A DNA stretch of 50,109 nucleotides. Origin: a virus (lineage: Duplodnaviria > Caudoviricetes). Within the stretch, counting starts at the first letter, position 1. Every line of letters begins with the position of its first letter. Below, piece after piece: positions 1,995 to 50,109 of the stretch. The stretch covers positions 1 to 50,109 of IMG/VR virus record IMGVR_UViG_3300025383_000034. One strand, 5' to 3'. The notes below the pieces were generated by a model. It was not told where the DNA came from and did not search any database. It was given only the letters and a program-made list of their open reading frames with translations. The position numbers were made by a program, and so were the translations under genes.

Positions 1995-2563
1995 TATTTA
2001 ACTCCATACAAAGCAAAGGAAGAATACTGCACATAAGGAGAATAGTCTGGAAGAATTGTAAAACTACTAATTGGGTCAGAAATATTTGATCCAGTCCCAG
2101 ACTTAAACCATACGCCCGAACCAATTTCTATTAAACCAGAACCATTAGCGTCTGTACCCATAAGGTACCGATGAGTTTTATATTTATTAGTATTTGTGTA
2201 ATCAAGAATATCTACAACATTTGCAGAAAAATATCCCGAAGCTCCGCCGGAACCACCAAGCCAGCCACGAGTTTGAGAAGCGTAACCGTAGGCAGTAACC
2301 GCTGAACCATTACCTTGTAACCAATGCTGAGAGTAGTTAGACCCTGTATCTCCATTAAATTGGATATTCATTCCGTCAGTAATAGCACCAGAACGACTTG
2401 TTTGCGCAATTATACGAAGTTGTAAGTGTGTATAAGTGCTTGGAATAGAAGAAAAAGTTATTGTGCTTGCCCCACCTGAACCAACGGTTTGCGTAGCAAT
2501 CGAAGTGTAGTTACCACCCAAATGCCCCGATATTCCAGAGGCTAATATGCCAGGTAGAATCAT
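1994..2563 (-). CDS. Tail-tip/receptor-binding paralogue 1 with MILPGILASG leader
   Basis: ATGA-coupled to the upstream gene; same family motifs. Confidence 0.65.
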   Translation of the reverse strand: MILPGILASGISGHLGGNYTSIATQTVGSGGASTITFSSIPSTYTHLQLRIIAQTSRSGAITDGMNIQFNGDTGSNYSQHWLQGNGSAVTAYGYASQTRGWLGGSGGASGYFSANVVDILDYTNTNKYKTHRYLMGTDANGSGLIEIGSGVWFKSGTGSNISDPISSFTILPDYSPYVQYSSFALYGVK

Positions 2564-2916
2564 GCAATATCTCCAAGCACTAACCAAGTATTCGCAGCCG
2601 TCTGAATTGCAGAAGCGCCGCTGTACTGCACACGGGTCTTAGGAGCCGAAGCGGTTGAGCCATTGGAAACAATGGTTACGCCTGAGCCTTGAGTAATAGT
2701 CGTCTGGCCAGCGCCAGTCTGGGCAATGTTCAAGATAGTGCCGACTGGAAAAGCCACCGATGAGTTTGGTGGAATGGTGAAGGTGTTAGCCGATGCGTTG
2801 TTGATCGTAACAAGCGTATTGCTACCATCGCCAAGGACTGCGGTGTACGAAGCAGACTGGGCATTGACGTTGATGGTAGGCGAGACTGCGTTGTTATTGA
2901 GTAATGATACAGCCAT
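2560..2916 (-). CDS. Tail fibre subunit, paralogous to the C-terminal domain of 3230-3997
   Basis: Shared NAQ..SYT.V..D, NI.QTGAGQ.T, K.R.QYS.A and GDIA-stop motifs. Confidence 0.65.
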   Translation of the reverse strand: MAVSLLNNNAVSPTINVNAQSASYTAVLGDGSNTLVTINNASANTFTIPPNSSVAFPVGTILNIAQTGAGQTTITQGSGVTIVSNGSTASAPKTRVQYSGASAIQTAANTWLVLGDIA

Positions 2917-3230
2917 TAGAGCGTTACTCCTGTCGCAGTAAAGTCGGTGTTAGCCGTTGTGGAATACACTGAAAGTGTATCTCCAGTAGCTAACGTCCAG
3001 CCTGGGTTTTCGTGGATTGTGCTGTTGCCAGGTACGGTAAAACCGTAGTACTGGTAATAAGCCGATCCACCAGACTTAGTAATCGATACACGAATTGTAT
3101 CAGATGATGAGCCTTTGTTGCAGACAGTAAATGAGGAAACAATGCTGCCGTTGGTGCTACCTGTGACAAGTGTTGTCAAGGTAGTAGCCGATGGCGTGGA
3201 CTGTCCAAGAACGACGTATGCTGTTGCCAT
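2916..3230 (-). CDS. Small beta-rich virion protein
   Basis: 104 aa, Thr/Ser-rich, translationally coupled within the tail module. Confidence 0.6.
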   Translation of the reverse strand: MATAYVVLGQSTPSATTLTTLVTGSTNGSIVSSFTVCNKGSSSDTIRVSITKSGGSAYYQYYGFTVPGNSTIHENPGWTLATGDTLSVYSTTANTDFTATGVTL

Positions 3231-3997
3231 TACGCAATGTCTCCAATCAAGGTGAAGGTGTTGGTTGCTACGCAGATAATGGTTGCAGCCGAGTATTGGG
3301 TACGCAGCTTGGTGCCTGTACCCGTAAAGGTTGATGTGCCGTCGTTGGCTACGGTTACCTGACCTGCGCCAGTTTGCTGGATGTTGACGGCTTGACCGAC
3401 GCTAAACACACCCGATGGGATAGTCAGGGTAATTGAGCCAGTATTGTAGAGCGTTACCAGCTTGGCTGCGTCAGCAGCTACAAGGGTGTAACTCGTACCA
3501 GTCTGAGCATTAATGCCCATGCTGATAACTGGCGAGGTAAGAACCGCTGAGCCGATGGTTGGGGCTGTGCCAAATACTGCCGATCCAGAGCCTGTCTCAT
3601 CTGGCAGCAAGGCTGCCAAGTTAGCCGAGGTTGGAGTTGTTAAGAATGTGCCAAGGGCACCCGTAATACCGTGTACGCCATTAGGGCCAGAGCCGATGTG
3701 CGCTCCAGCATCTGTCATATCCTGAGCTGTAATCACGTGACGGACAACAGCACCAGAGTTGTGAGCCTGAGCAGTGGTTCCGTTAAAGCCACGCTGAACC
3801 GTCAGGGTCAAACCTGAAATGTTGGTAACGAGTACCAGCTCTTCGGCAGAGGTGTTGTAGTCAACAGCAAGCACAAATGGAAAGCTGCCTGGGTAACCTA
3901 CAGTAGCTCCAACCACCATGGTGGTGGCAGAGTTAGTCATCGCCGAAGTGAGCGTCGTATCCTGCGCCGTAGCGCTGTAATATCTATTTTGTGCCAT
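3230..3997 (-). CDS. Proximal tail fibre/minor tail protein
   Basis: N-terminal LTVQRGFNGTTAQAH motif typical of phage tail proteins; beta-rich C-terminal domain. Confidence 0.7.
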   Translation of the reverse strand: MAQNRYYSATAQDTTLTSAMTNSATTMVVGATVGYPGSFPFVLAVDYNTSAEELVLVTNISGLTLTVQRGFNGTTAQAHNSGAVVRHVITAQDMTDAGAHIGSGPNGVHGITGALGTFLTTPTSANLAALLPDETGSGSAVFGTAPTIGSAVLTSPVISMGINAQTGTSYTLVAADAAKLVTLYNTGSITLTIPSGVFSVGQAVNIQQTGAGQVTVANDGTSTFTGTGTKLRTQYSAATIICVATNTFTLIGDIA

Positions 3998-4006
3998 CTG
4001 CCTGCC

Positions 4007-4897
4007 TTAGCGAGAGTAGTGTGTGCGTGGTGGATATTGTTCTTGCTGGCGACGAATTTCCACCTGCAAGCGTTGCTGGTACATCTGATAGAAATAGCGA
4101 GACATGTTGGTAGCAGAGCCAACTGGGTTGGACTGTTGCTGCGCATCCGCTTCAGCGGTGATGGCTGGGATACGGCCCATGTCAATATAGGCAGCTGAGC
4201 GATACGCTGCGCCAAGGATGATTACTTCACGGCACGACTCTGGCAAACCAGTCAATGTAAAGTCATCGTTATCGTTTTGTAGCTGAGTAGGCTTTTTGGT
4301 GTAGACAACCTGAACAGTACGACCTGGGATAATTCCATCGGAGATGGAGATAGTCTTGCCGCTGTTCCACGCTAGTGGGTTAGCTGTACGGTCAATGCGG
4401 TAGTGGCGAACTGGTAGCCATTCTAAAGAAGGCCCGATGGTCTGCCACGATACTGCCAAAGCGTCGATAGCTTCCTGCGGTAGCTGGTAGGTAGTACGAG
4501 CTGCAATGAATGGGAAGGTTGTGTAGTACACGCCAAACAAGTCTGGATAGATAGCGTCAATCGCTTCGTTAATATCCTTACGGATCATGGCCCGTGGGAA
4601 TGAAGGAGTGATGGTAACGCGTGTACCCGCAGTGTGTGGCACTGGGGTTGTATCTCTAAAACCACGACCATATGGCGGAATGGTCGCAGTGTTGGTGGTG
4701 CGGTCAAACGAGTCAACCCAGATTAGCTCTTCGTCAATTTCGACAATACCGCGTGTAAGGACTGTTCCATCGGCTACCGTAAAGGTAGTCGCTGTGGCAC
4801 TTAGGTCCGCAGTAAGGAATGTGGCTTGGTCCTGGCGAGAGGTATAGCCTGTGAGGGCTAGTGCCGTCTCATCAATTAAATCAGAGAATAAAGTCAC
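4007..4897 (-). CDS. Probable head-tail adaptor/tail tubular protein
   Basis: 296 aa; contains RGFRDTTP..H motif and helical segments; lies between head and fibre genes. Confidence 0.55.
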   Translation of the reverse strand: MTLFSDLIDETALALTGYTSRQDQATFLTADLSATATTFTVADGTVLTRGIVEIDEELIWVDSFDRTTNTATIPPYGRGFRDTTPVPHTAGTRVTITPSFPRAMIRKDINEAIDAIYPDLFGVYYTTFPFIAARTTYQLPQEAIDALAVSWQTIGPSLEWLPVRHYRIDRTANPLAWNSGKTISISDGIIPGRTVQVVYTKKPTQLQNDNDDFTLTGLPESCREVIILGAAYRSAAYIDMGRIPAITAEADAQQQSNPVGSATNMSRYFYQMYQQRLQVEIRRQQEQYPPRTHYSR

Positions 4898-5178
4898 GAT
4901 GCAATCCTTGCTGCTGCTTCTGCCTCGCCAATACCGTAGGTACCAGCCAGTGCGTTTAATACGCCAGGTGTGTCTAACTTGAGGTTCACTCCGCCATTGC
5001 GGTAAGCGTAAATCTGGTTGAGTGCGTCAATACCACGGGTTGCATTGTGGCCAGGGATGACAGCGTCAGCCCATTTTACGCAAGCACCGTTAAAGTCGTA
5101 CTGAGGTACGCCGTTGATAATAGTGCCAGCTAAACGGTTGATGTGATACACCGTAGACAACCCGCCGTAATTTGCCAT
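4894..5178 (-). CDS. Hypothetical virion-module protein
   Basis: 94 aa, coupled to its neighbours. Confidence 0.65.
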   Translation of the reverse strand: MANYGGLSTVYHINRLAGTIINGVPQYDFNGACVKWADAVIPGHNATRGIDALNQIYAYRNGGVNLKLDTPGVLNALAGTYGIGEAEAAARIAS

Positions 5179-5346
5179 TTACTTGCCTTTCTTGGAATGG
5201 TATTTCTTTGTAGCCTTAACACCAGCGGCAATGGTCTTAACTCCAGCCACTTTGGTTAGGTCAATAACTTTGCCACTCTTATGCTTGACAACCACATCTT
5301 TGGTAATGGTGTGAGTCTTACCACCAACCTTGATTGTCTTTGCCAT
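5179..5346 (-). CDS. Small Lys-rich protein (55 aa; not in ORF track)
   Basis: MAKTIKVGGKTHTITKDVVVKHKSGKVIDLTKVAGVKTIAAGVKATKKYHSKKGK; TAATG-coupled. Confidence 0.7.
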   Translation of the reverse strand: MAKTIKVGGKTHTITKDVVVKHKSGKVIDLTKVAGVKTIAAGVKATKKYHSKKGK

Positions 5347-5462
5347 TACTTAGTGCCGCCTACGCCCTTATATTCGCCATAAGGAGTTTTGGTTGGCTTG
5401 CCAGTGAGCTTCTCGTCAAGCTTGCCAATGGCGTTCTTATCGCAGCCACATTCTTTGCACAT
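5346..5462 (-). CDS. Small protein, 38 aa, MCKECGC start
   Basis: Fills the gap between coupled ORFs; AAGGT RBS. Confidence 0.6.
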   Translation of the reverse strand: MCKECGCDKNAIGKLDEKLTGKPTKTPYGEYKGVGGTK

Positions 5463-5463
5463 A

Positions 5464-5634
5464 TTACTTACCTTTAACTTTCTTGAGGTTTGGGTTTTTC
5501 TTCTTTGCTGCTGGACTTGCATTACGAGCGCCAGCTGCAAGAATTGCACCAGCGTTCTTCATAGGAATACCTTGCTTCTTAGAAATAGACTTTGCCGCTG
5601 CGGCAAAACCCATACCCTTTTTTGCTGCTGCCAT
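5464..5634 (-). CDS. Small Lys/Ala-rich protein (56 aa; not in ORF track)
   Basis: MAAAKKGMGFAAAAKSISKKQGIPMKNAGAILAAGARNASPAAKKKNPNLKKVKGK; TAATG-coupled. Confidence 0.7.
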   Translation of the reverse strand: MAAAKKGMGFAAAAKSISKKQGIPMKNAGAILAAGARNASPAAKKKNPNLKKVKGK

Positions 5635-6030
5635 TAGAGCGCACCAACTTCCTTCATAGTGTTTGCGAGTGGTTTATCTATCTTTGATGCGGCTGGCATA
5701 TACTCTGCGTTGTACGCCGTACCAAGCTTGTCACTAGCAGCCTTAGCTTCCTGGACTGCCTTCATGGTTGTGCCTGCTGGCTGAATACCTTGTGAGCGAG
5801 CATCCGCGTAGGCGTTCAGCTCTGCGTTCCACTTCTTGTTGCTCATGCTGTCAGCTCGGCCAGCATCGCCTGTGCTTAGCTCTAGTGTGCGGAGCTTGCA
5901 GCCAAAGCAGCCATCGATATAATCAGTATGGTTAAGATGATCCGATGGTGTTTCTTCAACCACTGGCGGAGTTGTGAAAACTTCGTCGCATCCAGTGCAA
6001 CCATATTCAACGGGAATAGAGTTGTAACTC

Positions 6031-9094
<3,064 letters not shown>

Positions 9095-9102
9095 GCCTGC
9101 TC

Positions 9103-9360
9103 CTAAACCGTTGTGATGTTAGCGCCGTAACCAGCGTTTGTTAAAATCGTATATTCCGCCTGGGACAGTACATACTCATGTCCACCCAAGTAGCAGTAGT
9201 CTGCTGACTGAGTATCTTGTACGGCAGGGGTACGCGTACTAACTACGGCTGTACCGAATACAAGAATTGAATTTGCCCGTGGTAAGCGATAACGCCAAAA
9301 CAATATGCCAAAGCCCGCAGGGCCTTCTTCCACCGTAGGTGGTTTGAAAACATATGCCAT
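9103..9360 (-). CDS. Hypothetical virion protein downstream of the capsid gene
   Basis: 85 aa, GAAAGG RBS. Confidence 0.7.
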   Translation of the reverse strand: MAYVFKPPTVEEGPAGFGILFWRYRLPRANSILVFGTAVVSTRTPAVQDTQSADYCYLGGHEYVLSQAEYTILTNAGYGANITTV

Positions 9361-9381
9361 GTGCTACCTTTCAATAGGGGT

Positions 9382-9419
9382 GTTGCCACCCAGCCCCACG
9401 TGCGAGGCTGGGAGACAAC
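9382..9419 (-). terminator. Strong hairpin after the capsid gene (no U tract)
   Basis: GTTGTC-T-CCCAGCCT...GGGCTGGG-T-GGCAAC on the minus strand. Confidence 0.6.
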
Positions 9420-9428
9420 TAACTCAAA

Positions 9429-10472
9429 TTAAGAGTTGTGGATCGAAGATGTTGATTCGATACGAACCAAAGCTGCGTCACGGTAACGTGCCCAGCCAAG
9501 AACGCCGTACCATCCGATTGGACGGAAACGCATCAACTTATCAACGACTGGACCGAACACGACATGTGGCTCTTCAGCAACTGCTTCAGCCAATGCTTGC
9601 TTTCCAGCAACGAGTGTACGGAAGACGCGAACGCCACCAGTAGCGTAGACGTAAGACGATGTTCCGAAGGTGCCTGTTGCACCAGTAGAACCTGTACCGT
9701 CGGTTGTGTTGAACAAACGTGGTGATTCTACGAACATTGCGCCTTCGTAAGTTCCGATGGTGCCTGGCCAAAATTCAGCTGCACCTGTCTCGGAGAACTT
9801 GTGGTCATCGCGCCATCCGCCTGAGCCTGTCTCAGAACGAAGGTCGAATGAAACTTCTGGGTGAATACCACACCAGTAGTATTCTCCTTGACGTGGGACA
9901 GCCTTGTTTGCACGAAGCTTAGCCACTGCGGTACGAATATCGCGTGACTTGATTACGTCAGTGTTGCGGATTGTAGCCGCGGTTGTTCCGTTGGTGTATG
10001 AACCAGCGTAGGTTGAAACAAGGTTACCGTTAACTTCTGCGATAGCATTTGGGCCACCGATGAGAACGTTAAGGACGTTTGTGTCAAGTGAGTCAGCCAT
10101 GTTGAAGGCGATAATATCTGCAATCGCTGGGTCAACATCTGAGAGTGAGAACAACTCAAGCTTACGAGTTGTTAATGATGCATTTCCGTATTCAAGGAGA
10201 GATACGGAAATTGGGGTTGTGTTTCCAAGTGCTACTGCATCTGGATCAACATCTTCTGAGAGAGAAGAAGTTACTGCGGTCATGTCTGTGTAAATCTGGA
10301 ATACAACAGACGAACCTGGCATTGCTTGCTGTACTGGGCGCTTATCTGCAACGTCGCGGATAAGAGGAACAGCACGAAGGGCAAACTCTACATAGCGATC
10401 ATAAGCGGTCTGTACTAAGCCTGGAATACCAGCGGTAGAGCCGATTGAGTCGGTATATTGATTACCTGCCAT
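9429..10472 (-). CDS. Major capsid protein (HK97 fold, N4-gp56-like family)
   Basis: L.EYGN, IHPEV..DL, G.IG.YEG..F.ES and GWYG motifs; follows the scaffold gene. Confidence 0.9.
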   Translation of the reverse strand: MAGNQYTDSIGSTAGIPGLVQTAYDRYVEFALRAVPLIRDVADKRPVQQAMPGSSVVFQIYTDMTAVTSSLSEDVDPDAVALGNTTPISVSLLEYGNASLTTRKLELFSLSDVDPAIADIIAFNMADSLDTNVLNVLIGGPNAIAEVNGNLVSTYAGSYTNGTTAATIRNTDVIKSRDIRTAVAKLRANKAVPRQGEYYWCGIHPEVSFDLRSETGSGGWRDDHKFSETGAAEFWPGTIGTYEGAMFVESPRLFNTTDGTGSTGATGTFGTSSYVYATGGVRVFRTLVAGKQALAEAVAEEPHVVFGPVVDKLMRFRPIGWYGVLGWARYRDAALVRIESTSSIHNS

Positions 10473-10518
10473 TTGCGTCACCTACTTTCTTTGGGTATAT
10501 TGTGCGTTGATGGGTTGT

Positions 10519-11010
10519 TTAACGACGGCCGCGGCCAGTAACCGATTGTCCGAATACCAGCATGTCAAGCTCTTCTCTTGTCTTAACGCCAGCCAACTTC
10601 GCCGCTGCGTCTACGTCGCGGGAAGGGGTATTTGCGTTTTGAAGAGAGGCGTTGATACGCTGCATCTCACGGGCAGTTGGGTTTTCTGGTGCTTCCGATG
10701 AAGCATCTTCACTCACGGTAAAACCAAACACATCAGCGTTCTCGTTTAACCATGCGTCAATCTGCTCAGGCGTACTTACGTCGCCAGGAATGAACTTGGC
10801 GATCTTTGTGGATACGCCTTTCTGTTCCAATACTTCCTTGACGGAACGACCACGAAGGTCTGCTTGAATGTTTGCTAGCTGTTCAGCCAGTTCCTTCTTT
10901 TCGCGCTCAGCGCGCTTTAATGCCTTGCGAAGATTAGCTGGGCCATTCTGGTCCTGCTGAACTTCATCAAGCTCTAGATCGTCTTCGTCTTCTTCGTATT
11001 GGTTTGCCAT
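10519..11010 (-). CDS. Capsid scaffolding protein
   Basis: Acidic N-terminus, coiled coil, directly upstream of the capsid gene; GGGAG RBS before MANQYEE. Confidence 0.75.
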   Translation of the reverse strand: MANQYEEDEDDLELDEVQQDQNGPANLRKALKRAEREKKELAEQLANIQADLRGRSVKEVLEQKGVSTKIAKFIPGDVSTPEQIDAWLNENADVFGFTVSEDASSEAPENPTAREMQRINASLQNANTPSRDVDAAAKLAGVKTREELDMLVFGQSVTGRGRR

Positions 11011-11130
11011 GTGGCACTCCCTTTTCTGTTGGTTGGACGCAGGCCGCAGCATTTCCCAGGGGAAGGAATGTTGGCTCCTACTACCAGTCTGAAATACACG
11101 TCATCCATGCTGGTCAGTGGTGACGGAACT
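11011..11130 (-). ncRNA. Putative cis-regulatory structured RNA leader (pseudoknot plus hairpin)
   Basis: CGUCA-CCA/UGG-A-UGACG stem whose loop ACCAG is complementary to downstream CUGGU; a second long hairpin precedes the SD. Confidence 0.55.
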
Positions 11131-11138
11131 TGATGGGC

Positions 11139-12374
11139 TTAGGAAACGCCCTGGCTTTCTGTATAGAGGCTGCCCTTGGAAGCGCCCGAAGAACCAGAAA
11201 ATTCGTTAACTTCCTGTGCGCGCAAGCGAGCTAAATCTTGCTGAGCCTGAGCTGCGCTCACTCCATTGATATTGGAGTTGAATGTAGCTGCTGTCAAAGC
11301 GTTGCCGATATTGCCAGCGTTCATATTGTATGTGCTAGCAAGCGCTTGCTGCTGGCCAAGTTGAGAACCAATGGTTGTAAATCCTTGAGCTGCCTGCGCT
11401 TGGGTTACACCAGCGGCAGCAAGGGTTGCAGCGTTCTGTTGGTTAAGGGCAAGGTTTTGACGACCTGCTTCGCCTTGAATTTGAGAAGCTTGAACCTTCT
11501 GAGCGATGACGCTAGAGGCTGTAGCTGGGTCAAGAAGGTGACCAATCATGTCACCCTTTGTTAAACCAAAATTCTGCTGAAGCTGTTGCAAAGTGAAAGG
11601 GTCTGTTGCGGTTACAGCTGCTGTAGCAGCATCTACGCGCTGTTGAACTTCAGCTGGAGAAACGTCAGTGCCGATAAGGTTACCCAAGACTGCTGGATCC
11701 ATATGAGCAGCGTCCATGCCTGCACGGGCCATAACTGCCTTGTATGAGTTTTCAGTGCTGATATAGTCAGCTGGAGAAAGCGGCGTAAGGCCAGCCTTTT
11801 CGCGAGCAACGTTGCCAGAAAAGCGAGTATTCCAAGCGTTGGCTAATGCCACAACATTTGGGTCTTTAGAAGACGCAGCGGTTGGGTCTTGGATAAGGTT
11901 CTGAATTGTTGCAGCATCATAATTCTTTTGCTGCAATCCAAGGATAGCGTTTGATATAGCGCCCGTTGGGTCAATGCCATAGCCAGCCAAAGTGGACTGC
12001 AGAAGAGTTAAAGCGTTTTGATTAGTTATCTGCGTGTTGAGCGCAGCTTGACCAGCGGCTGCGTTTTGTCCAGCTTGAAGGGTGTTAATAAGCTTAGTCT
12101 GGTCATCAAGCTGTTTTTGAAGAGCTGTTAATTGAGCCGAATTATCGGTTGGCTTAATGTCATTTCCCGTGCCGCTACTTCCAGCGGTTGAACCTGTCGC
12201 TCCTTGCTTCGCAGGCGCGGCGGCAGATGAGGAAGATGCGGCTGGGGTAGATAGCGCACCAGTATAACCACCAGGCACATAACCATAATTGTTTGCGCTT
12301 GAGGCTGGGATAGCTGAAGATGGCTTTGCAGCTGGCGCAGGAGCGACAGCTCTATCAAGATTTTGATCAAGCAT
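11139..12374 (-). CDS. Probable internal virion (ejection) protein
   Basis: 411 aa, Ala/Gln-rich and helical, in the head module. Confidence 0.55.
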   Translation of the reverse strand: MLDQNLDRAVAPAPAAKPSSAIPASSANNYGYVPGGYTGALSTPAASSSSAAAPAKQGATGSTAGSSGTGNDIKPTDNSAQLTALQKQLDDQTKLINTLQAGQNAAAGQAALNTQITNQNALTLLQSTLAGYGIDPTGAISNAILGLQQKNYDAATIQNLIQDPTAASSKDPNVVALANAWNTRFSGNVAREKAGLTPLSPADYISTENSYKAVMARAGMDAAHMDPAVLGNLIGTDVSPAEVQQRVDAATAAVTATDPFTLQQLQQNFGLTKGDMIGHLLDPATASSVIAQKVQASQIQGEAGRQNLALNQQNAATLAAAGVTQAQAAQGFTTIGSQLGQQQALASTYNMNAGNIGNALTAATFNSNINGVSAAQAQQDLARLRAQEVNEFSGSSGASKGSLYTESQGVS

Positions 12375-14233
12375 TATTGACCCGTCACCAATCCAAAGTT
12401 ACGAAGAAGAGTATTTGCTGTATCCATTAAGCTGTTGCGAGCATTGGTTGTTTGCAACCATTGTGGGTTTTGCTTAACTGATGTAGTAAAAGCATCAAGG
12501 CTAATAGGTGTTGTTCCATCACCTTGAAGCGCCTTTGTAACAGATGCGCCCAAGCCAGTGGTTGCACCAAGGTCAATGGTTGAAGGGTCTACTTCAAGCA
12601 AGTTCGCCGCTGCGTTAAGGTATGGGCTAGCCAAAGCTTGTACGGTTTGGCCTTCTTTGATGCGCTGCGCGAATGGCGCGTACATTGCAATAGCCTGTTG
12701 CTTAATATAGTTTTGCTGCTCTTCAAGGGTAGTATTTCCCTTTTGTACGCCACTGGCTGCATTAGCAAAGTAATCAGTTCCAGTGGCAGCTTGGCCACTG
12801 GTGAGATACTGTGAAGCTACGCCCATTTGGCTTGCATAGCTCTTGAGAGCATCAACGGTTGAACCAAGGGTACCGCCGTACACACCCTGGTCCGTCTTAG
12901 CAAATCCAGTGTGGTTAGCAACATATCTGTCAACGGTTGCCTGGTCTGGCATGTTGTTGTAGAACTGGCTGAAGAATGTATTTACGCCGCTTTTTGTATC
13001 TTTGAAGGCAGCATCAATAGCAGCTGGGTCAATGTTTCCAGCAGCATCTGTTGGCAATGCTGTACCAAAAACTGCTGGATCCAATCCTTGAGCAGTCGCT
13101 GACTGTTGAAGGATTTGAAGCTTGTCGTTGTACTGTTGCCCCCACGCCTGCTTGTTACCATAGTAAGCAAGCTCGCTGTCGCGAATAGACTGACCAATTT
13201 GGTCCCATGGCTTTACGCCAGTTTTTGGGTCAACGTAATTCTGTACAGTATCTGTAAATTTTGTAGCTGACCACTTGCCATCATAGGCTTGCTGAATAAT
13301 GTCGGCCATCCATGGAGTGGCAAGAGCCAATGCTCCGATAGGACCAAGGGTTTGTACAAAAGCAGACTTTGCGGCAGCAGCCTCATCTGGAGTTTGCGGT
13401 CCTGCAACTGGTCGGTTAGCAAGTTCCGCTGCGGTCAAAGGTGTATAAGCCGCTGGTACAGAATCTGTTTTGCTAGAGCTGCTAGATGAGCTTGATGATG
13501 AAGATGATTTTGGGGCAGCTGGCTGTGGCACGGCCGCAGCTTGCTGTTGGTTTTGACTTTCAGCAGCGCCAGCTGGGATGGTTATTCCACCAGGCGTTGT
13601 AGTTGGCTTAACTCCCGCAGCCGCAGCTGTTGTTTTAGCCTTTGCCTCAGCTGCTTGAATTTGGCTATCGTATTGAGAGCCATCTCCGCCCAAGTCAATA
13701 GCGCGCTGCTTTTTTTCATTCAGTGCAGCAAGGTCGCTTTGCGCTTGCTGAGCAGCGGTCTTTGCCTGGTCAGCAGTTTCCTTGCCAGTCTCTGTTGTCT
13801 TTAGGTCATCAAGCTGTTTTTGCAGCGGAGCCATATCAGATGTGGCCTGATCAAACTGAGCTTTAGCTGTATTGTAGCGAGAAGAGCCAACTGGGCTAGA
13901 CTGCATAATTGCAGCGTTGTAATTTCTTGTGCTTTCAAGCTTGTTGATTTGCTCGTTAAGAGTATCTAGCTGAGCGCCAGTATCAGGGGTTGCTGGTGCA
14001 GCTTTAGCTGCAGGCTTTGAAGGGTTAGCAGAATTGATGTAAGCAATAGCTGAATCTTGGCTAGAACCAACGGCAATTTTTGGGTCGGATGACGATACGA
14101 CTTTGCCATCGCGAATGGTGGCAATTTCGTTCTCACCACTCATTAAAACCTGGACTGTGGCAAATGGGCCATAATCCGAATCAAACTTTGTTTGTATGCT
14201 GTAGCCCTTTGGCAAACCTGTTTTATTAGCCAT
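12374..14233 (-). CDS. Probable internal virion (ejection) protein
   Basis: 619 aa, coiled coil, poly-Ser linker. Confidence 0.55.
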   Translation of the reverse strand: MANKTGLPKGYSIQTKFDSDYGPFATVQVLMSGENEIATIRDGKVVSSSDPKIAVGSSQDSAIAYINSANPSKPAAKAAPATPDTGAQLDTLNEQINKLESTRNYNAAIMQSSPVGSSRYNTAKAQFDQATSDMAPLQKQLDDLKTTETGKETADQAKTAAQQAQSDLAALNEKKQRAIDLGGDGSQYDSQIQAAEAKAKTTAAAAGVKPTTTPGGITIPAGAAESQNQQQAAAVPQPAAPKSSSSSSSSSSSSKTDSVPAAYTPLTAAELANRPVAGPQTPDEAAAAKSAFVQTLGPIGALALATPWMADIIQQAYDGKWSATKFTDTVQNYVDPKTGVKPWDQIGQSIRDSELAYYGNKQAWGQQYNDKLQILQQSATAQGLDPAVFGTALPTDAAGNIDPAAIDAAFKDTKSGVNTFFSQFYNNMPDQATVDRYVANHTGFAKTDQGVYGGTLGSTVDALKSYASQMGVASQYLTSGQAATGTDYFANAASGVQKGNTTLEEQQNYIKQQAIAMYAPFAQRIKEGQTVQALASPYLNAAANLLEVDPSTIDLGATTGLGASVTKALQGDGTTPISLDAFTTSVKQNPQWLQTTNARNSLMDTANTLLRNFGLVTGQ

Positions 14234-43972: not shown

Positions 43973-44542
43973 TTATTTAACTCCATATAAAGCGAAGGAA
44001 GAATACTGCACATAAGGAGAATAGTCTGGAAGAATTGTAAAACTATTAATTGGGTCAGAAATATTTGATCCAGTCCCAGACTTAAACCATACGCCCGAAC
44101 CAATTTCTATTAAACCAGAACCATTAGCGTCTGTACCCATAAGGTACCGATGAGTTTTATATTTATTAGTATTTGTGTAATCAAGAATATCTACAACATT
44201 TGCAGAAAAATATCCCGAAGCTCCGCCGGAACCACCAAGCCAGCCACGAGTTTGAGAAGCGTAACCGTAGGCAGTAACCGCTGAACCATTACCTTGTAAC
44301 CAATGCTGAGAGTAGTTAGACCCTGTATCTCCATTAAATTGGATATTCATTCCGTCAGTAATAGCACCAGAACGACTTGTTTGCGCAATTATACGAAGTT
44401 GTAAGTGTGTATAAGTGCTTGGAATAGAAGAAAAAGTTATTGTGCTTGCCCCACCTGAACCAACGGTTTGCGTAGCAATCGAAGTGTAGTTACCACCCAA
44501 ATGCCCCGATATTCCAGAGGCTAATATGCCAGGTAGAATCAT
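43973..44542 (-). CDS. Tail-tip paralogue 1 (second copy; one S/N difference)
   Basis: Copy of 1994-2563. Confidence 0.65.
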   Translation of the reverse strand: MILPGILASGISGHLGGNYTSIATQTVGSGGASTITFSSIPSTYTHLQLRIIAQTSRSGAITDGMNIQFNGDTGSNYSQHWLQGNGSAVTAYGYASQTRGWLGGSGGASGYFSANVVDILDYTNTNKYKTHRYLMGTDANGSGLIEIGSGVWFKSGTGSNISDPINSFTILPDYSPYVQYSSFALYGVK

Positions 44543-44895
44543 GCAATATCTCCAAGCACTAACCAAGTATTCGCAGCCGTCTGAATTGCAGAAGCGCCGC
44601 TGTACTGCACACGGGTCTTAGGAGCCGAAGCGGTTGAGCCATTGGAAACAATGGTTACGCCTGAGCCTTGAGTAATAGTCGTCTGGCCAGCGCCAGTCTG
44701 GGCAATGTTCAAGATAGTGCCGACTGGAAAAGCCACCGATGAGTTTGGTGGAATGGTGAAGGTGTTAGCCGATGCGTTGTTGATCGTAACAAGCGTATTG
44801 CTACCATCGCCAAGGACTGCGGTGTACGAAGCAGACTGGGCATTGACGTTGATGGTAGGCGAGACTGCGTTGTTATTGAGTAATGATACAGCCAT
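44539..44895 (-). CDS. Tail fibre subunit (second copy)
   Basis: Identical translation to 2560-2916. Confidence 0.65.
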   Translation of the reverse strand: MAVSLLNNNAVSPTINVNAQSASYTAVLGDGSNTLVTINNASANTFTIPPNSSVAFPVGTILNIAQTGAGQTTITQGSGVTIVSNGSTASAPKTRVQYSGASAIQTAANTWLVLGDIA

Positions 44896-45209
44896 TAGAG
44901 CGTTACTCCTGTCGCAGTAAAGTCGGTGTTAGCCGTTGTGGAATACACTGAAAGTGTATCTCCAGTAGCTAACGTCCAGCCTGGGTTTTCGTGGATTGTG
45001 CTGTTGCCAGGTACGGTAAAACCGTAGTACTGGTAATAAGCCGATCCACCAGACTTAGTAATCGATACACGAATTGTATCAGATGATGAGCCTTTGTTGC
45101 AGACAGTAAATGAGGAAACAATGCTGCCGTTGGTGCTACCTGTGACAAGTGTTGTCAAGGTAGTAGCCGATGGCGTGGACTGTCCAAGAACGACGTATGC
45201 TGTTGCCAT
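44895..45209 (-). CDS. Small virion protein (second copy)
   Basis: Identical translation to 2916-3230. Confidence 0.6.
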   Translation of the reverse strand: MATAYVVLGQSTPSATTLTTLVTGSTNGSIVSSFTVCNKGSSSDTIRVSITKSGGSAYYQYYGFTVPGNSTIHENPGWTLATGDTLSVYSTTANTDFTATGVTL

Positions 45210-45976
45210 TACGCAATGTCTCCAATCAAGGTGAAGGTGTTGGTTGCTACGCAGATAATGGTTGCAGCCGAGTATTGGGTACGCAGCTTGGTGCCTGTAC
45301 CCGTAAAGGTTGATGTGCCGTCGTTGGCTACGGTTACCTGACCTGCGCCAGTTTGCTGGATGTTGACGGCTTGACCGACGCTAAACACACCCGATGGGAT
45401 AGTCAGGGTAATTGAGCCAGTATTGTAGAGCGTTACCAGCTTGGCTGCGTCAGCAGCTACAAGGGTGTAACTCGTACCAGTCTGAGCATTAATGCCCATG
45501 CTGATAACTGGCGAGGTAAGAACCGCTGAGCCGATGGTTGGGGCTGTGCCAAATACTGCCGATCCAGAGCCTGTCTCATCTGGCAGCAAGGCTGCCAAGT
45601 TAGCCGAGGTTGGAGTTGTTAAGAATGTGCCAAGGGCACCCGTAATACCGTGTACGCCATTAGGGCCAGAGCCGATGTGCGCTCCAGCATCTGTCATATC
45701 CTGAGCTGTAATCACGTGACGGACAACAGCACCAGAGTTGTGAGCCTGAGCAGTGGTTCCGTTAAAGCCACGCTGAACCGTCAGGGTCAAACCTGAAATG
45801 TTGGTAACGAGTACCAGCTCTTCGGCAGAGGTGTTGTAGTCAACAGCAAGCACAAATGGAAAGCTGCCTGGGTAACCTACAGTAGCTCCAACCACCATGG
45901 TGGTGGCAGAGTTAGTCATCGCCGAAGTGAGCGTCGTATCCTGCGCCGTAGCGCTGTAATATCTATTTTGTGCCAT
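45209..45976 (-). CDS. Proximal tail fibre protein (second copy)
   Basis: Identical translation to 3230-3997. Confidence 0.7.
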   Translation of the reverse strand: MAQNRYYSATAQDTTLTSAMTNSATTMVVGATVGYPGSFPFVLAVDYNTSAEELVLVTNISGLTLTVQRGFNGTTAQAHNSGAVVRHVITAQDMTDAGAHIGSGPNGVHGITGALGTFLTTPTSANLAALLPDETGSGSAVFGTAPTIGSAVLTSPVISMGINAQTGTSYTLVAADAAKLVTLYNTGSITLTIPSGVFSVGQAVNIQQTGAGQVTVANDGTSTFTGTGTKLRTQYSAATIICVATNTFTLIGDIA

Positions 45977-45985
45977 CTGCCTGCC

Positions 45986-46876
45986 TTAGCGAGAGTAGTG
46001 TGTGCGTGGTGGATATTGTTCTTGCTGGCGACGAATTTCCACCTGCAAGCGTTGCTGGTACATCTGATAGAAATAGCGAGACATGTTGGTAGCAGAGCCA
46101 ACTGGGTTGGACTGTTGCTGCGCATCCGCTTCAGCGGTGATGGCTGGGATACGGCCCATGTCAATATAGGCAGCTGAGCGATACGCTGCGCCAAGGATGA
46201 TTACTTCACGGCACGACTCTGGCAAACCAGTCAATGTAAAGTCATCGTTATCGTTTTGTAGCTGAGTAGGCTTTTTGGTGTAGACAACCTGAACAGTACG
46301 ACCTGGGATAATTCCATCGGAGATGGAGATAGTCTTGCCGCTGTTCCACGCTAGTGGGTTAGCTGTACGGTCAATGCGGTAGTGGCGAACTGGTAGCCAT
46401 TCTAAAGAAGGCCCGATGGTCTGCCACGATACTGCCAAAGCGTCGATAGCTTCCTGCGGTAGCTGGTAGGTAGTACGAGCTGCAATGAATGGGAAGGTTG
46501 TGTAGTACACGCCAAACAAGTCTGGATAGATAGCGTCAATCGCTTCGTTAATATCCTTACGGATCATGGCCCGTGGGAATGAAGGAGTGATGGTAACGCG
46601 TGTACCCGCAGTGTGTGGCACTGGGGTTGTATCTCTAAAACCACGACCATATGGCGGAATGGTCGCAGTGTTGGTGGTGCGGTCAAACGAGTCAACCCAG
46701 ATTAGCTCTTCGTCAATTTCGACAATACCGCGTGTAAGGACTGTTCCATCGGCTACCGTAAAGGTAGTCGCTGTGGCACTTAGGTCCGCAGTAAGGAATG
46801 TGGCTTGGTCCTGGCGAGAGGTATAGCCTGTGAGGGCTAGTGCCGTCTCATCAATTAAATCAGAGAATAAAGTCAC
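45986..46876 (-). CDS. Probable head-tail adaptor (second copy)
   Basis: Identical translation to 4007-4897. Confidence 0.55.
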   Translation of the reverse strand: MTLFSDLIDETALALTGYTSRQDQATFLTADLSATATTFTVADGTVLTRGIVEIDEELIWVDSFDRTTNTATIPPYGRGFRDTTPVPHTAGTRVTITPSFPRAMIRKDINEAIDAIYPDLFGVYYTTFPFIAARTTYQLPQEAIDALAVSWQTIGPSLEWLPVRHYRIDRTANPLAWNSGKTISISDGIIPGRTVQVVYTKKPTQLQNDNDDFTLTGLPESCREVIILGAAYRSAAYIDMGRIPAITAEADAQQQSNPVGSATNMSRYFYQMYQQRLQVEIRRQQEQYPPRTHYSR

Positions 46877-47157
46877 GATGCAATCCTTGCTGCTGCTTCT
46901 GCCTCGCCAATACCGTAGGTACCAGCCAGTGCGTTTAATACGCCAGGTGTGTCTAACTTGAGGTTCACTCCGCCATTGCGGTAAGCGTAAATCTGGTTGA
47001 GTGCGTCAATACCACGGGTTGCATTGTGGCCAGGGATGACAGCGTCAGCCCATTTTACGCAAGCACCGTTAAAGTCGTACTGAGGTACGCCGTTGATAAT
47101 AGTGCCAGCTAAACGGTTGATGTGATACACCGTAGACAACCCGCCGTAATTTGCCAT
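46873..47157 (-). CDS. Hypothetical protein (second copy)
   Basis: Identical translation to 4894-5178. Confidence 0.65.
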   Translation of the reverse strand: MANYGGLSTVYHINRLAGTIINGVPQYDFNGACVKWADAVIPGHNATRGIDALNQIYAYRNGGVNLKLDTPGVLNALAGTYGIGEAEAAARIAS

Positions 47158-47613
47158 TTACTTGCCTTTCTTGGAATGGTATTTCTTTGTAGCCTTAACA
47201 CCAGCGGCAATGGTCTTAACTCCAGCCACTTTGGTTAGGTCAATAACTTTGCCACTCTTATGCTTGACAACCACATCTTTGGTAATGGTGTGAGTCTTAC
47301 CACCAACCTTGATTGTCTTTGCCATTACTTAGTGCCGCCTACGCCCTTATATTCGCCATAAGGAGTTTTGGTTGGCTTGCCAGTGAGCTTCTCGTCAAGC
47401 TTGCCAATGGCGTTCTTATCGCAGCCACATTCTTTGCACATATTACTTACCTTTAACTTTCTTGAGGTTTGGGTTTTTCTTCTTTGCTGCTGGACTTGCA
47501 TTACGAGCGCCAGCTGCAAGAATTGCACCAGCGTTCTTCATAGGAATACCTTGCTTCTTAGAAATAGACTTTGCCGCTGCGGCAAAACCCATACCCTTTT
47601 TTGCTGCTGCCAT
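47158..47613 (-). CDS. Three small basic ORFs (second copy: 47158-47325, 47325-47441, 47443-47613)
   Basis: Copy of 5179-5634. Confidence 0.65.
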
Positions 47614-48009
47614 TAGAGCGCACCAACTTCCTTCATAGTGTTTGCGAGTGGTTTATCTATCTTTGATGCGGCTGGCATATACTCTGCGTTGTACGCCGTA
47701 CCAAGCTTGTCACTAGCAGCCTTAGCTTCCTGGACTGCCTTCATGGTTGTGCCTGCTGGCTGAATACCTTGTGAGCGAGCATCCGCGTAGGCGTTCAGCT
47801 CTGCGTTCCACTTCTTGTTGCTCATGCTGTCAGCTCGGCCAGCATCGCCTGTGCTTAGCTCTAGTGTGCGGAGCTTGCAGCCAAAGCAGCCATCGATATA
47901 ATCAGTATGGTTAAGATGATCCGATGGTGTTTCTTCAACCACTGGCGGAGTTGTGAAAACTTCGTCGCATCCAGTGCAACCATATTCAACGGGAATAGAG
48001 TTGTAACTC

Positions 48010-50109
<2,100 letters not shown>

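Follow-up and report, generated by a model that had tools for sequence, protein, structure and literature searches.

A conserved pseudoknotted RNA in front of the scaffold-like and capsid genes of tailed phages, and its possible role as a leader of the head-protein message

We analysed a window of 50,109 nucleotides (nt), IMG/VR virus record IMGVR_UViG_3300025383_000034 (Duplodnaviria; Caudoviricetes), and found that the 128-nt gap (11138–11011) between the TAA stop (11141–11139) of a gene for a 411-amino-acid (aa) protein and the ATG at 11010 of a gene for a 163-aa scaffold-like protein encodes a conserved folded RNA with a pseudoknot. The structured RNA is approximately 115 nt long and comprises a hairpin (P1), an H-type pseudoknot, a long interrupted hairpin with a C-rich 8-nt loop, a G-poor linker, and the Shine-Dalgarno (SD) region of the scaffold-like gene; all of these features lie on the coding strand, which is the minus strand. 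An earlier interpretation made from the letters of the window (the sequence-only reading) had drawn two stems and a pseudoknot in this gap, and the gap and every helix that it named were present at the positions and on the strand given there. The element probably controls the amount of head-building protein that is made. We propose, tentatively, that it is a cis-acting 5′ leader of the scaffold-capsid messenger RNA (mRNA), placed at the 5′ end of the processed message, and that it tunes scaffold translation through a contact between the apical loop of the long hairpin and the SD. Little is understood of how tailed phages set the ratio of scaffold and capsid proteins to the low-copy virion proteins whose genes lie just upstream, and the element provides a well-defined, covariation-supported RNA fold at exactly the scaffold gene boundary. 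It also occurs in cultured virulent Streptomyces podoviruses, whose laboratory host strains are harmless, and the question is therefore directly testable.

Comparative evidence for the RNA fold

The folding energy of the single sequence gave no signal, as the minimum free energy (MFE) of a 137-nt stretch was −36 kcal/mol versus −36.8 ± 4.0 kcal/mol for shuffled sequences (z = +0.20); the fold that is conserved is not the one predicted as the MFE optimum. The case therefore rests on comparison. Since blastn of 10400–12400 against phage records gave no match, relatives were sought through proteins, and a search guided by the scaffold-like protein yielded 252 related IMG/VR stretches, 80 of which were kept. 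The gap was 122–129 nt long in 78 of 78 sequences (the window and the 77 of the 80 fetched loci that had the upstream gene in view). We refer to the clade of the window as clade A, to that around Caudovirales sp. ct2KA10 as clade B, and to the Streptomyces phages (Beephvirinae) with their soil relatives as clade C.

For clade A, 39 distinct gaps were aligned with MAFFT only (alignment A1), and the 29 pairs of the drawn structure (P1, pseudoknot, and long hairpin) were compared with slid controls in which the pairing partners were shifted by 1–3 columns. The proportion of paired cells was 91.0% versus 26.6–38.7% for the slid controls, 22 of the 29 pairs showed compensatory changes, and none of 500 shuffles attained the observed covariation score. 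A covariance model (R1) was then built from A1 without the pseudoknot. Further loci were added by a pattern running from the loop to the SD (at least 119 stretches); R1 matched 89 of the 91 sources given to it, and the R1-based alignment (A2) contained 88 distinct sequences. The corresponding values for A2 were 93.2% paired cells versus 25.0–36.7% for the slid controls and 23 of 29 compensatory pairs. The pseudoknot pairs 27-57, 28-56, 29-55, 30-54, and 31-52 were unpaired in none of the 88 sequences, and four of the five covary, switching between C-G and U-A or between A-U and G-C. Because the pseudoknot is absent from R1, its support is no artefact of fitting the alignment. A mutual-information scan of all column pairs placed the drawn pairs almost exclusively in the top ranks; it gave no partner for the GUGCC that follows the SD, no further long-range helix, and no helix resembling P2 of the pistol ribozyme. 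G-U pairs occurred on the coding strand only, for example in 14 of 88 sequences at pair 15-40 of clade A and in 18 of 25 at pair 14-41 of clade C. On the other strand these would be A-C mismatches, and the folded molecule is therefore the sense RNA.

Relatives of the scaffold-like gene in uncultured phage contigs numbered 252, at least 592, and 31 IMG/VR stretches in clades A, B, and C, respectively, and clade C additionally contained 29 phage records. The closest cultured relatives of the window are the Streptomyces phages of the subfamily Beephvirinae, whose capsid protein is about 51–53% identical to that of the window; the capsid protein of the uncultured ct2KA10 is 60% identical. The scaffold-like proteins of Beephvirinae and ct2KA10 are 30% and 37% identical to that of the window, respectively. 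R1 scored 64 bits on the ct2KA10 leader and matched all 63 distinct clade-B leaders supplied, with 51–74 bits. Among the 56 distinct aligned rows of clade B, 93.1% of the cells were paired versus 21–36% for the slid controls, and 17 of the 29 pairs were compensatory; here the P1 bulge is found on the opposite strand, which makes the alignment of P1 imperfect. In regard to clade C, R1 scored merely 21 bits, and the 25 distinct leaders were aligned with MAFFT (alignment A5; 36 pairs counted), in which 97.9% of the cells were paired versus 27–39% for the slid controls and 20 of the 36 pairs were compensatory. The clade-C pseudoknot was 100% paired with covariation at 4 of its 6 pairs, and it alternates between GCUGG/CCAGC, GCCAG/CUGGC, and GUCAG/CUGAC. 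P1 of this clade consists of 5 base pairs (bp), a bulge, and 3 bp, and the same G-Y-G-U-A and A-G-A-C linker motifs, P2, invariant AGC..GG bulges, and long hairpin are present. By sequence comparison, the fold is supported independently by three clades. Both stems and the pseudoknot that the sequence-only reading had drawn on the coding strand show compensatory changes in all three, and covariation among relatives, the check that reading had put forward, was thus found for each of these parts.

P1 is formed by the 5′ strand CGUCACCA (11125–11118) and the 3′ strand UGG-A-UGACG (11107–11099), in which A11104 is bulged; all 8 pairs change on both sides in clade A, with 95.6% of the cells paired, and this stem stood as first drawn. 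The pseudoknot 5′ strand ACCAGC (11114–11109) lies in the P1 loop and pairs with G-[A]-CUGGU (11089–11083), in which A11088 is bulged. The helix ACCAG/CUGGU (11087–11083) proposed earlier is therefore supported by covariation in three clades and enlarged by a sixth pair, C11109-G11089, which is C-G in 70 sequences, U-A in 18, and unpaired in none. Linker L3, UGUAUUUCA (11098–11090), precedes the pseudoknot 3′ strand. In each of the three clades, the motif G-Y-G-U-A, which starts at 11099, and the motif A-G-A-C, which ends at 11087, vary little or not at all.

A single nucleotide, A11082, lies between the pseudoknot 3′ strand and P2, the 5-bp base of the long hairpin, in which GUAGG (11081–11077) pairs with CCUGC (11043–11039). 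Pair 63-103 of P2 is G-C in 69 sequences and A-U in 18, and the fifth pair, 64-102, is G-C in 75 and A-U in 13. Above P2 (11076–11074) are an invariant AG bulge (11076–11075) and C11074, which pairs with G11044, with a two-base bulge (11046–11045) on the opposite side. The 5′ strand of the upper hairpin (11073–11065) is CAA followed by CAUUCC. The CAA (11073–11071) opposes CUG (11049–11047), where the A11071/C11049 mismatch of the window is the sole non-pair at that position among the 88 sequences, and the apical stem joins 11070–11065 with 11056–11050. The covarying pairs of the upper hairpin in the clade A alignment (n = 88) are 68-98, 70-96, 75-90, 76-89, 77-88, and 78-87. The 3′ strands of the upper hairpin and P2 (11056–11039) read GGAAAUG, CUG, the bulge CG, G, and CCUGC. 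Compensatory changes thus uphold the long hairpin of the sequence-only reading (11081–11039), with its base redrawn as GUAGG/CCUGC and its apical loop as 8 nt. This loop, UUCCCCUG (11064–11057), is invariant in the clade of the window and is replaced by UUCCCCGA in the ct2KA10 clade and by UUCCCUAG in the Streptomyces clade.

The G after P2 (11038) is invariant in clades A and B and is followed by an A/C-rich, G-poor linker (11037–11025) with no supported pairing, which is 8–15 nt long in clade A with 9% G. The last segment (11024–11011) holds the SD region AAAGGGAG (11024–11017) and UGCC (11016–11013) and is the candidate partner of the apical loop; A-A-G-G-G-A-G-U-G-C-C (11023–11013) is invariant or nearly so in clade A. 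Between the SD and the start codon, the sequence is fixed beyond the needs of an SD, as GUGCC in the clade of the window and as GUUGCU in the ct2KA10 clade. In leaders of the latter clade (L274–L353), a CAAC upstream of the SD can pair with the GUUG after it, and this pairing would present the SD in a small loop.

The sequence-only reading had considered the RNA possibly undescribed, and this view held: none of the 4227 models of Rfam 15 matched the gap of the window, the leader of phage WRightOn, or the ct2KA10 leader at E ≤ 10. The best scores were noise (8–18 bits versus gathering scores of 30–90) and were scattered over unrelated families. Searches of the full-text literature turned up no account of this RNA. 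The element occurs once per genome. The exact pattern from loop to SD was present in 65 stretches of 185,579 prokaryote genomes, about the number estimated for chance, although diverged copies could escape the pattern; R1 matched none of the 65 at E < 0.01 (best 17.9 bits, E 0.31), and no prophage copy was found among them. A pseudoknotted translational leader is a known kind of element; no earlier description is known of this RNA family, of its association with scaffold genes, or of the way in which it joins arrays of transfer RNA (tRNA) genes. The element would be a new entry for RNA family databases.

The tRNA junction and the 5′ end of the message

The Streptomyces phages of the Beephvirinae are virulent podoviruses (PMC11536984). 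In these phages the element still adjoins the scaffold-like gene, although a tRNA array separates it from the upstream gene. In WRightOn, 23 annotated tRNA genes lie between the homologue of the 411-aa gene and the element, which is followed by the scaffold-like gene (locus L265, 7391–9411). Across clade C (L265 and L354–L384), the arrays inserted at this site contain up to 23 tRNA genes. The element stays with the scaffold-like gene despite the array and therefore belongs to the downstream gene. This constant position fits a cis-acting leader and agrees with the cis-regulatory role suggested in the sequence-only reading. In all 22 clade-C loci in which ARAGORN was used, a tRNA ended 112–121 nt before the scaffold start codon (Val-UAC in 21 loci and Met in 1). 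The last tRNA of clade C consists of the body, the discriminator base, and an encoded CC, the second C of which forms the first P1 base pair (A5). The unpaired C directly 5′ of P1 in the window (11126) corresponds to the first C of this CC. Clades A and B keep the CC as an unpaired C, invariant in 88 of 88 and 56 of 56 sequences, respectively, followed by the first P1 pair; at this site, tRNA genes are lacking from the window and from its freshwater clade.

The tRNA lies directly ahead of P1 in clade C, and maturation of the last tRNA would therefore leave P1 at most 2 nt from the 5′ end of the RNA. With the tRNA array flush against the element, tRNA processing and the maturation of late mRNA may be linked in these phages. 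RNase E purified from mycobacteria cuts preferentially just 5′ of cytidines (PMC10641625). An equivalent 5′ end in clades A and B could arise by cleavage before the invariant C, the host of these clades being presumed to be actinobacterial. Just 5′ of the element lies a hexamer (CAAGTT at 11132–11127 in the window) that is TANNNT-like in relatives: position 2 is A in 83 of 88 clade-A and 56 of 56 clade-B sequences, position 6 is T in 82 of 88 and 56 of 56, and the hexamer is TAGAAT in 42 of the 56 clade-B leaders. It could be a −10 element or, as RNA, a cleavage context.

We also examined RNA libraries. Six lake-water libraries contain about a third of the sampled words of 10300–11900 (DNA runs contain 92–96% of the words of this interval), and four of the six were examined. 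Lake-RNA contigs with about 97% identity to the window run through the capsid and scaffold-like genes and include most of the element, and the longest (X13 record 1) covers 9516–11115. In three runs the contig stops at 11115, 11113, and 11131, respectively, and in the fourth it stops at 11026; no loose end was seen at these stops. The stops at 11113–11131 are at most a weak hint of an RNA 5′ end near P1, since strain differences also break these contigs and P1 varies more than any other segment. The continuity of the contigs argues against complete cleavage inside 11026–11113. No contig covered 11132–11303 in the four runs, and the upstream gene was covered by separate low-depth contigs alone. 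As contig depth cannot rank genes and an uncovered part proves nothing, these data were not used to infer a promoter or differential abundance.

ARAGORN detected no tRNA or transfer-messenger RNA (tmRNA) genes in the whole window, and a tRNA-like element in the gap was rejected on this basis. A tmRNA reported by the same program in locus L384 (157–418) overlaps several tRNA genes of the array and is probably a false call.

The apical loop, the SD, and the candidate functions

The sequence-only reading had also noted that the apex of the long hairpin is complementary to the GGGAG of the SD (11021–11017). This complementarity was retained as 5 bp in clade C and approximately 4 bp in clade A and fell to approximately 3 bp in clade B. 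In clade C, the loop CCUAG is complementary to the CUAGG of the SD region over 5 bp in 25 of 25 sequences, and the variable pair is G-C in 20, G-U in 2, and A-U in 1, with two more G-U cases hidden by alignment gaps. The invariant loop of clade A can form 4 bp with the SD as either CCCU/AGGG or UCCC/GGGA, and the rare variants of this clade (the loop of L077 and the SD of L062) retain the first register. The loop and the SD of clade C each differ from those of clade A at two positions, yet complementarity persists in the same register. A search of viral contigs for loop variants in which position 6 is not C gave 48 stretches, none of which was real according to R1; the absence of natural variants from this search shows that the loop is strongly constrained. 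Loop and SD belong to a single molecule, at a distance of about 35–45 nt, and the linker between the hairpin and the SD is 7–19 nt long with 1–13% G across the clades. Such a short, G-poor linker fits a strand that is kept free to reach the loop.

Under the leader mechanism that we tentatively favour, the RNA would act in cis and post-transcriptionally on expression of the scaffold-like gene. The C-rich apical loop would mimic the anti-SD sequence and pair with the 5′ half of the SD, giving a second, long-range pseudoknot that would set or gate the access of 30S subunits to the scaffold start. The compact module of P1 and the pseudoknot would lie at the 5′ end of the processed mRNA or 1–2 nt from it, where it would hold the shape of the leader and shield the 5′ end. 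In the Streptomyces phages, tRNA 3′ processing would generate that end; elsewhere, an RNase E-type cleavage before the invariant C might do so. Several points weigh against this proposal. The support for the loop-SD contact is thin: one between-clade event and one double change within clade C make it suggestive at the sequence level, and the pairing in clades A and B rests on invariant columns. Some complementarity between C-rich loops and G-rich SDs would be expected anyway. In clade B the contact amounts to merely about three G-C pairs, with the G at loop position 7 opposing an A, and the clade-C linker (7–11 nt) could, by inferred geometry, just barely span the hairpin of about 16 bp. As for the 5′ end, the RNA-library contigs prove neither transcription nor an RNA end; if the hexamer were a −10 element, its transcript would begin within P1, at odds with the covariation seen in the outer P1 pairs. 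Moreover, an 8-bp hairpin would suffice for 5′ protection, and the elaborate fold therefore argues for a more specific partner.

C-rich loops that pair with G-rich SD regions are known from trans-acting small RNAs, namely the 6C RNA of Actinobacteria and RNAs of the RoxS/RsaE type. The present element shares with them an apical C-run complementary to the SD, and its cultured members are in actinobacterial phages; it differs in that the loop and the SD are on one molecule and in that the Rfam models of those RNAs do not match it. In SD-masking riboswitches with an H-type pseudoknot, such as preQ1-I, preQ1-II, and SAM-II, the SD is part of the pseudoknot 3′ strand or adjoins it, and conserved nucleotides specific to each family form a ligand pocket. 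They differ from the element, in which the covarying pseudoknot 3′ strand is about 60 nt upstream of the SD, and no Rfam riboswitch family matched.

The same module could instead serve as a 5′-terminal stabiliser, which we consider a doubtful but appreciable alternative. Flush with a 5′-monophosphorylated end, it would block 5′-end-dependent RNase E or RNase J and give a long-lived message for the two head proteins in greatest demand; the resemblance of the loop to an anti-SD would be secondary, and such a role would be compatible with that of a translational leader. The position of the tRNA end exactly at P1 in 22 of 22 clade-C loci favours it, since processing there would leave P1 at the 5′ end, as do the unpaired invariant C before P1 in clades A and B, given the preference of actinobacterial RNase E for cutting 5′ of C (PMC10641625), and, as a weak hint, the stops of the RNA-library contigs at 11113–11131 in 3 of 4 runs. 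Against it, a plain hairpin could serve this purpose, which leaves unexplained the invariant 8-nt loop, the AG/GG bulges, and the constant spacing to the SD; nor is the host of clade A known to be actinobacterial. The 5′ hairpins of the ompA type and the exoribonuclease-resistant RNAs (xrRNAs) of viruses likewise place a stable fold, pseudoknotted here, at the probable 5′ end of an abundant message; the 5′ end of the present RNA is predicted, and Rfam detected no similarity to xrRNA families. A broader form of this idea, in which a self-contained module both makes and guards the 5′ end of the message, either as a new pistol-like ribozyme or as a phage counterpart of the exoribonuclease-resistant RNAs of eukaryotic viruses that stalls RNase J or RNase E at a pseudoknot, appears quite unlikely. 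If the RNA itself cut at or near its own 5′ edge as a small self-cleaving ribozyme of a new class, the cut would make the mRNA 5′ end and, in Beephvirinae, would also release the array's last tRNA at its 3′ end. The compact pseudoknotted fold with invariant junction nucleotides and the adjoining tRNA 3′ end in all 22 clade-C loci speak for this very unlikely reading, as does the order of helices (P1 5′ strand, pseudoknot 5′ strand, P1 3′ strand, pseudoknot 3′ strand, hairpin), which is that of pistol minus P2. In the pistol ribozyme the P1 loop forms a pseudoknot, P2 encloses the pseudoknot 3′ strand and P3, and the cleavage dinucleotide lies 3′ of P3. The element resembles it in having a hairpin whose loop pairs past a linker and then a second hairpin, a feature common to many RNAs, and differs in that the mutual-information scan found no covarying pair between L3 and the tail and no covarying helix equivalent to P2. 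HDV-like ribozymes (named after hepatitis delta virus) have been reported next to phage tRNAs; they form a nested double pseudoknot, with the 3′ strand of P2 placed after the P4 hairpin. Their helix order is unlike that of the element, in which the pseudoknot 3′ strand (11089–11083) precedes the long hairpin (11081–11039). No Rfam 15 ribozyme family, those of pistol and HDV-like ribozymes included, matched at E ≤ 10. The RNA contigs run uninterrupted from the open reading frame through the hairpin and the pseudoknot, so that cleavage inside 11026–11113 is not complete, and the ends can be accounted for by RNase Z, P, or E of the host. For the processed structural RNA that the sequence-only reading had named as an alternative, the sole support is the position of the element at the likely processed 5′ end.

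Strictly conserved loop and bulge nucleotides also suggest a specific ligand, and free scaffold or capsid protein might bind the pseudoknot or the C-rich loop and repress translation. By analogy with known phage systems such an autogenous operator is conceivable, and we consider it unlikely. The T4 gp32 protein represses translation from its own leader in this way, and the scaffolding protein of P22 controls its own synthesis post-transcriptionally, as has been known genetically for decades; we know of no RNA element defined for the latter. The present RNA resembles the T4 gene 32 leader in being a phage mRNA leader in which a 5′ H-type pseudoknot is followed by an unstructured stretch into the ribosome-binding site, with presumed dosage control of an abundantly needed protein. 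The likeness is one of layout alone: there is no sequence or family relation, the present RNA has an extra long hairpin with an invariant C-rich loop, its linker is short and A/C-rich, and the downstream gene is scaffold-like. P22 offers the same gene class, with scaffold output set after transcription; the phages are unrelated, and for the present RNA feedback by the protein is a conjecture. Co-occurrence of the element with the scaffold-like gene across proteins that are 30–37% identical is consistent with an operator. In contrast, Pfam detects no RNA-binding domain in the 163-aa protein, whose N-terminus is very acidic and whose basic C-terminal tail is short, and this protein has diverged to 30% identity while the loop and bulges are nearly fixed, so that a host partner or RNA-RNA contacts fit at least equally well. 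A signal at the DNA level (a promoter or protein-binding site) or a chance structure without function is barely credible and close to refuted. The TANNNT-like hexamer before P1 and the unremarkable single-sequence folding energy would fit it; the compensatory changes in three clades, with G-U pairs tolerated on the sense strand alone, oppose it, and a consensus scan of 9000–13000 for sigma-70 promoters and intrinsic terminators found none in the gap.

Neighbouring genes and other features of the window

All genes discussed here are on the minus strand. In the direction of transcription, the order is a 1607-aa gene, a 163-aa gene, a 619-aa gene, the 411-aa gene (phrog_8424; stop at 11141–11139), the gap, the 163-aa scaffold-like gene (11010–10519; phrog_7813), and the gene for the major capsid protein (10481–9429; phrog_1357, Pfam Phage_capsid_3). 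The 1607-aa, upstream 163-aa, 619-aa, and 411-aa proteins have no assigned function. The phrog_7813 protein is acidic with a coiled-coil look, a very acidic N-terminus, and a short basic C-terminal tail. It has no match in Pfam, which thus gives no support for a scaffold, and we therefore call it scaffold-like; the label is based on synteny, composition, and the annotation of homologues, which several Streptomyces phage records describe as "scaffolding protein". The true start of its gene is the ATG at 11010, as MA[ND]QY occurs there in 80 of 80 fetched relatives, and the in-frame extension upstream of this ATG is closed at differing points among relatives. A read-through or frameshift signal after the upstream stop was rejected, since the downstream frames close at different places in relatives and the stop sits 8–13 nt ahead of P1.

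Inside the capsid gene, 9848–9923 is represented in 3 of the 4 RNA libraries examined by a separate 79-nt contig with 5 differences and a word depth of 583–1811, versus about 30–56 for the surrounding contig. No Rfam family matches 9780–9990. The 79-nt contig may be a segment common to many related phages that was collapsed into one, or it may stem from some other abundant RNA with no relation to them.

The window, a complete viral record, is longer than one genome unit. About 2.2–7.5 kb of it repeats at an offset of 41,979 bases (2201–7600 versus 44180–49580): 30-mers sampled every 200 bases from 2201 to 7401 all recur at this constant offset, and the 30-mers sampled in the first 2.2 kb are without an exact second copy. 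The offset suggests a concatemer, an assembly of a circularly permuted genome, or terminal redundancy, with a unit of approximately 42 kb and some mixing of strains at one end.

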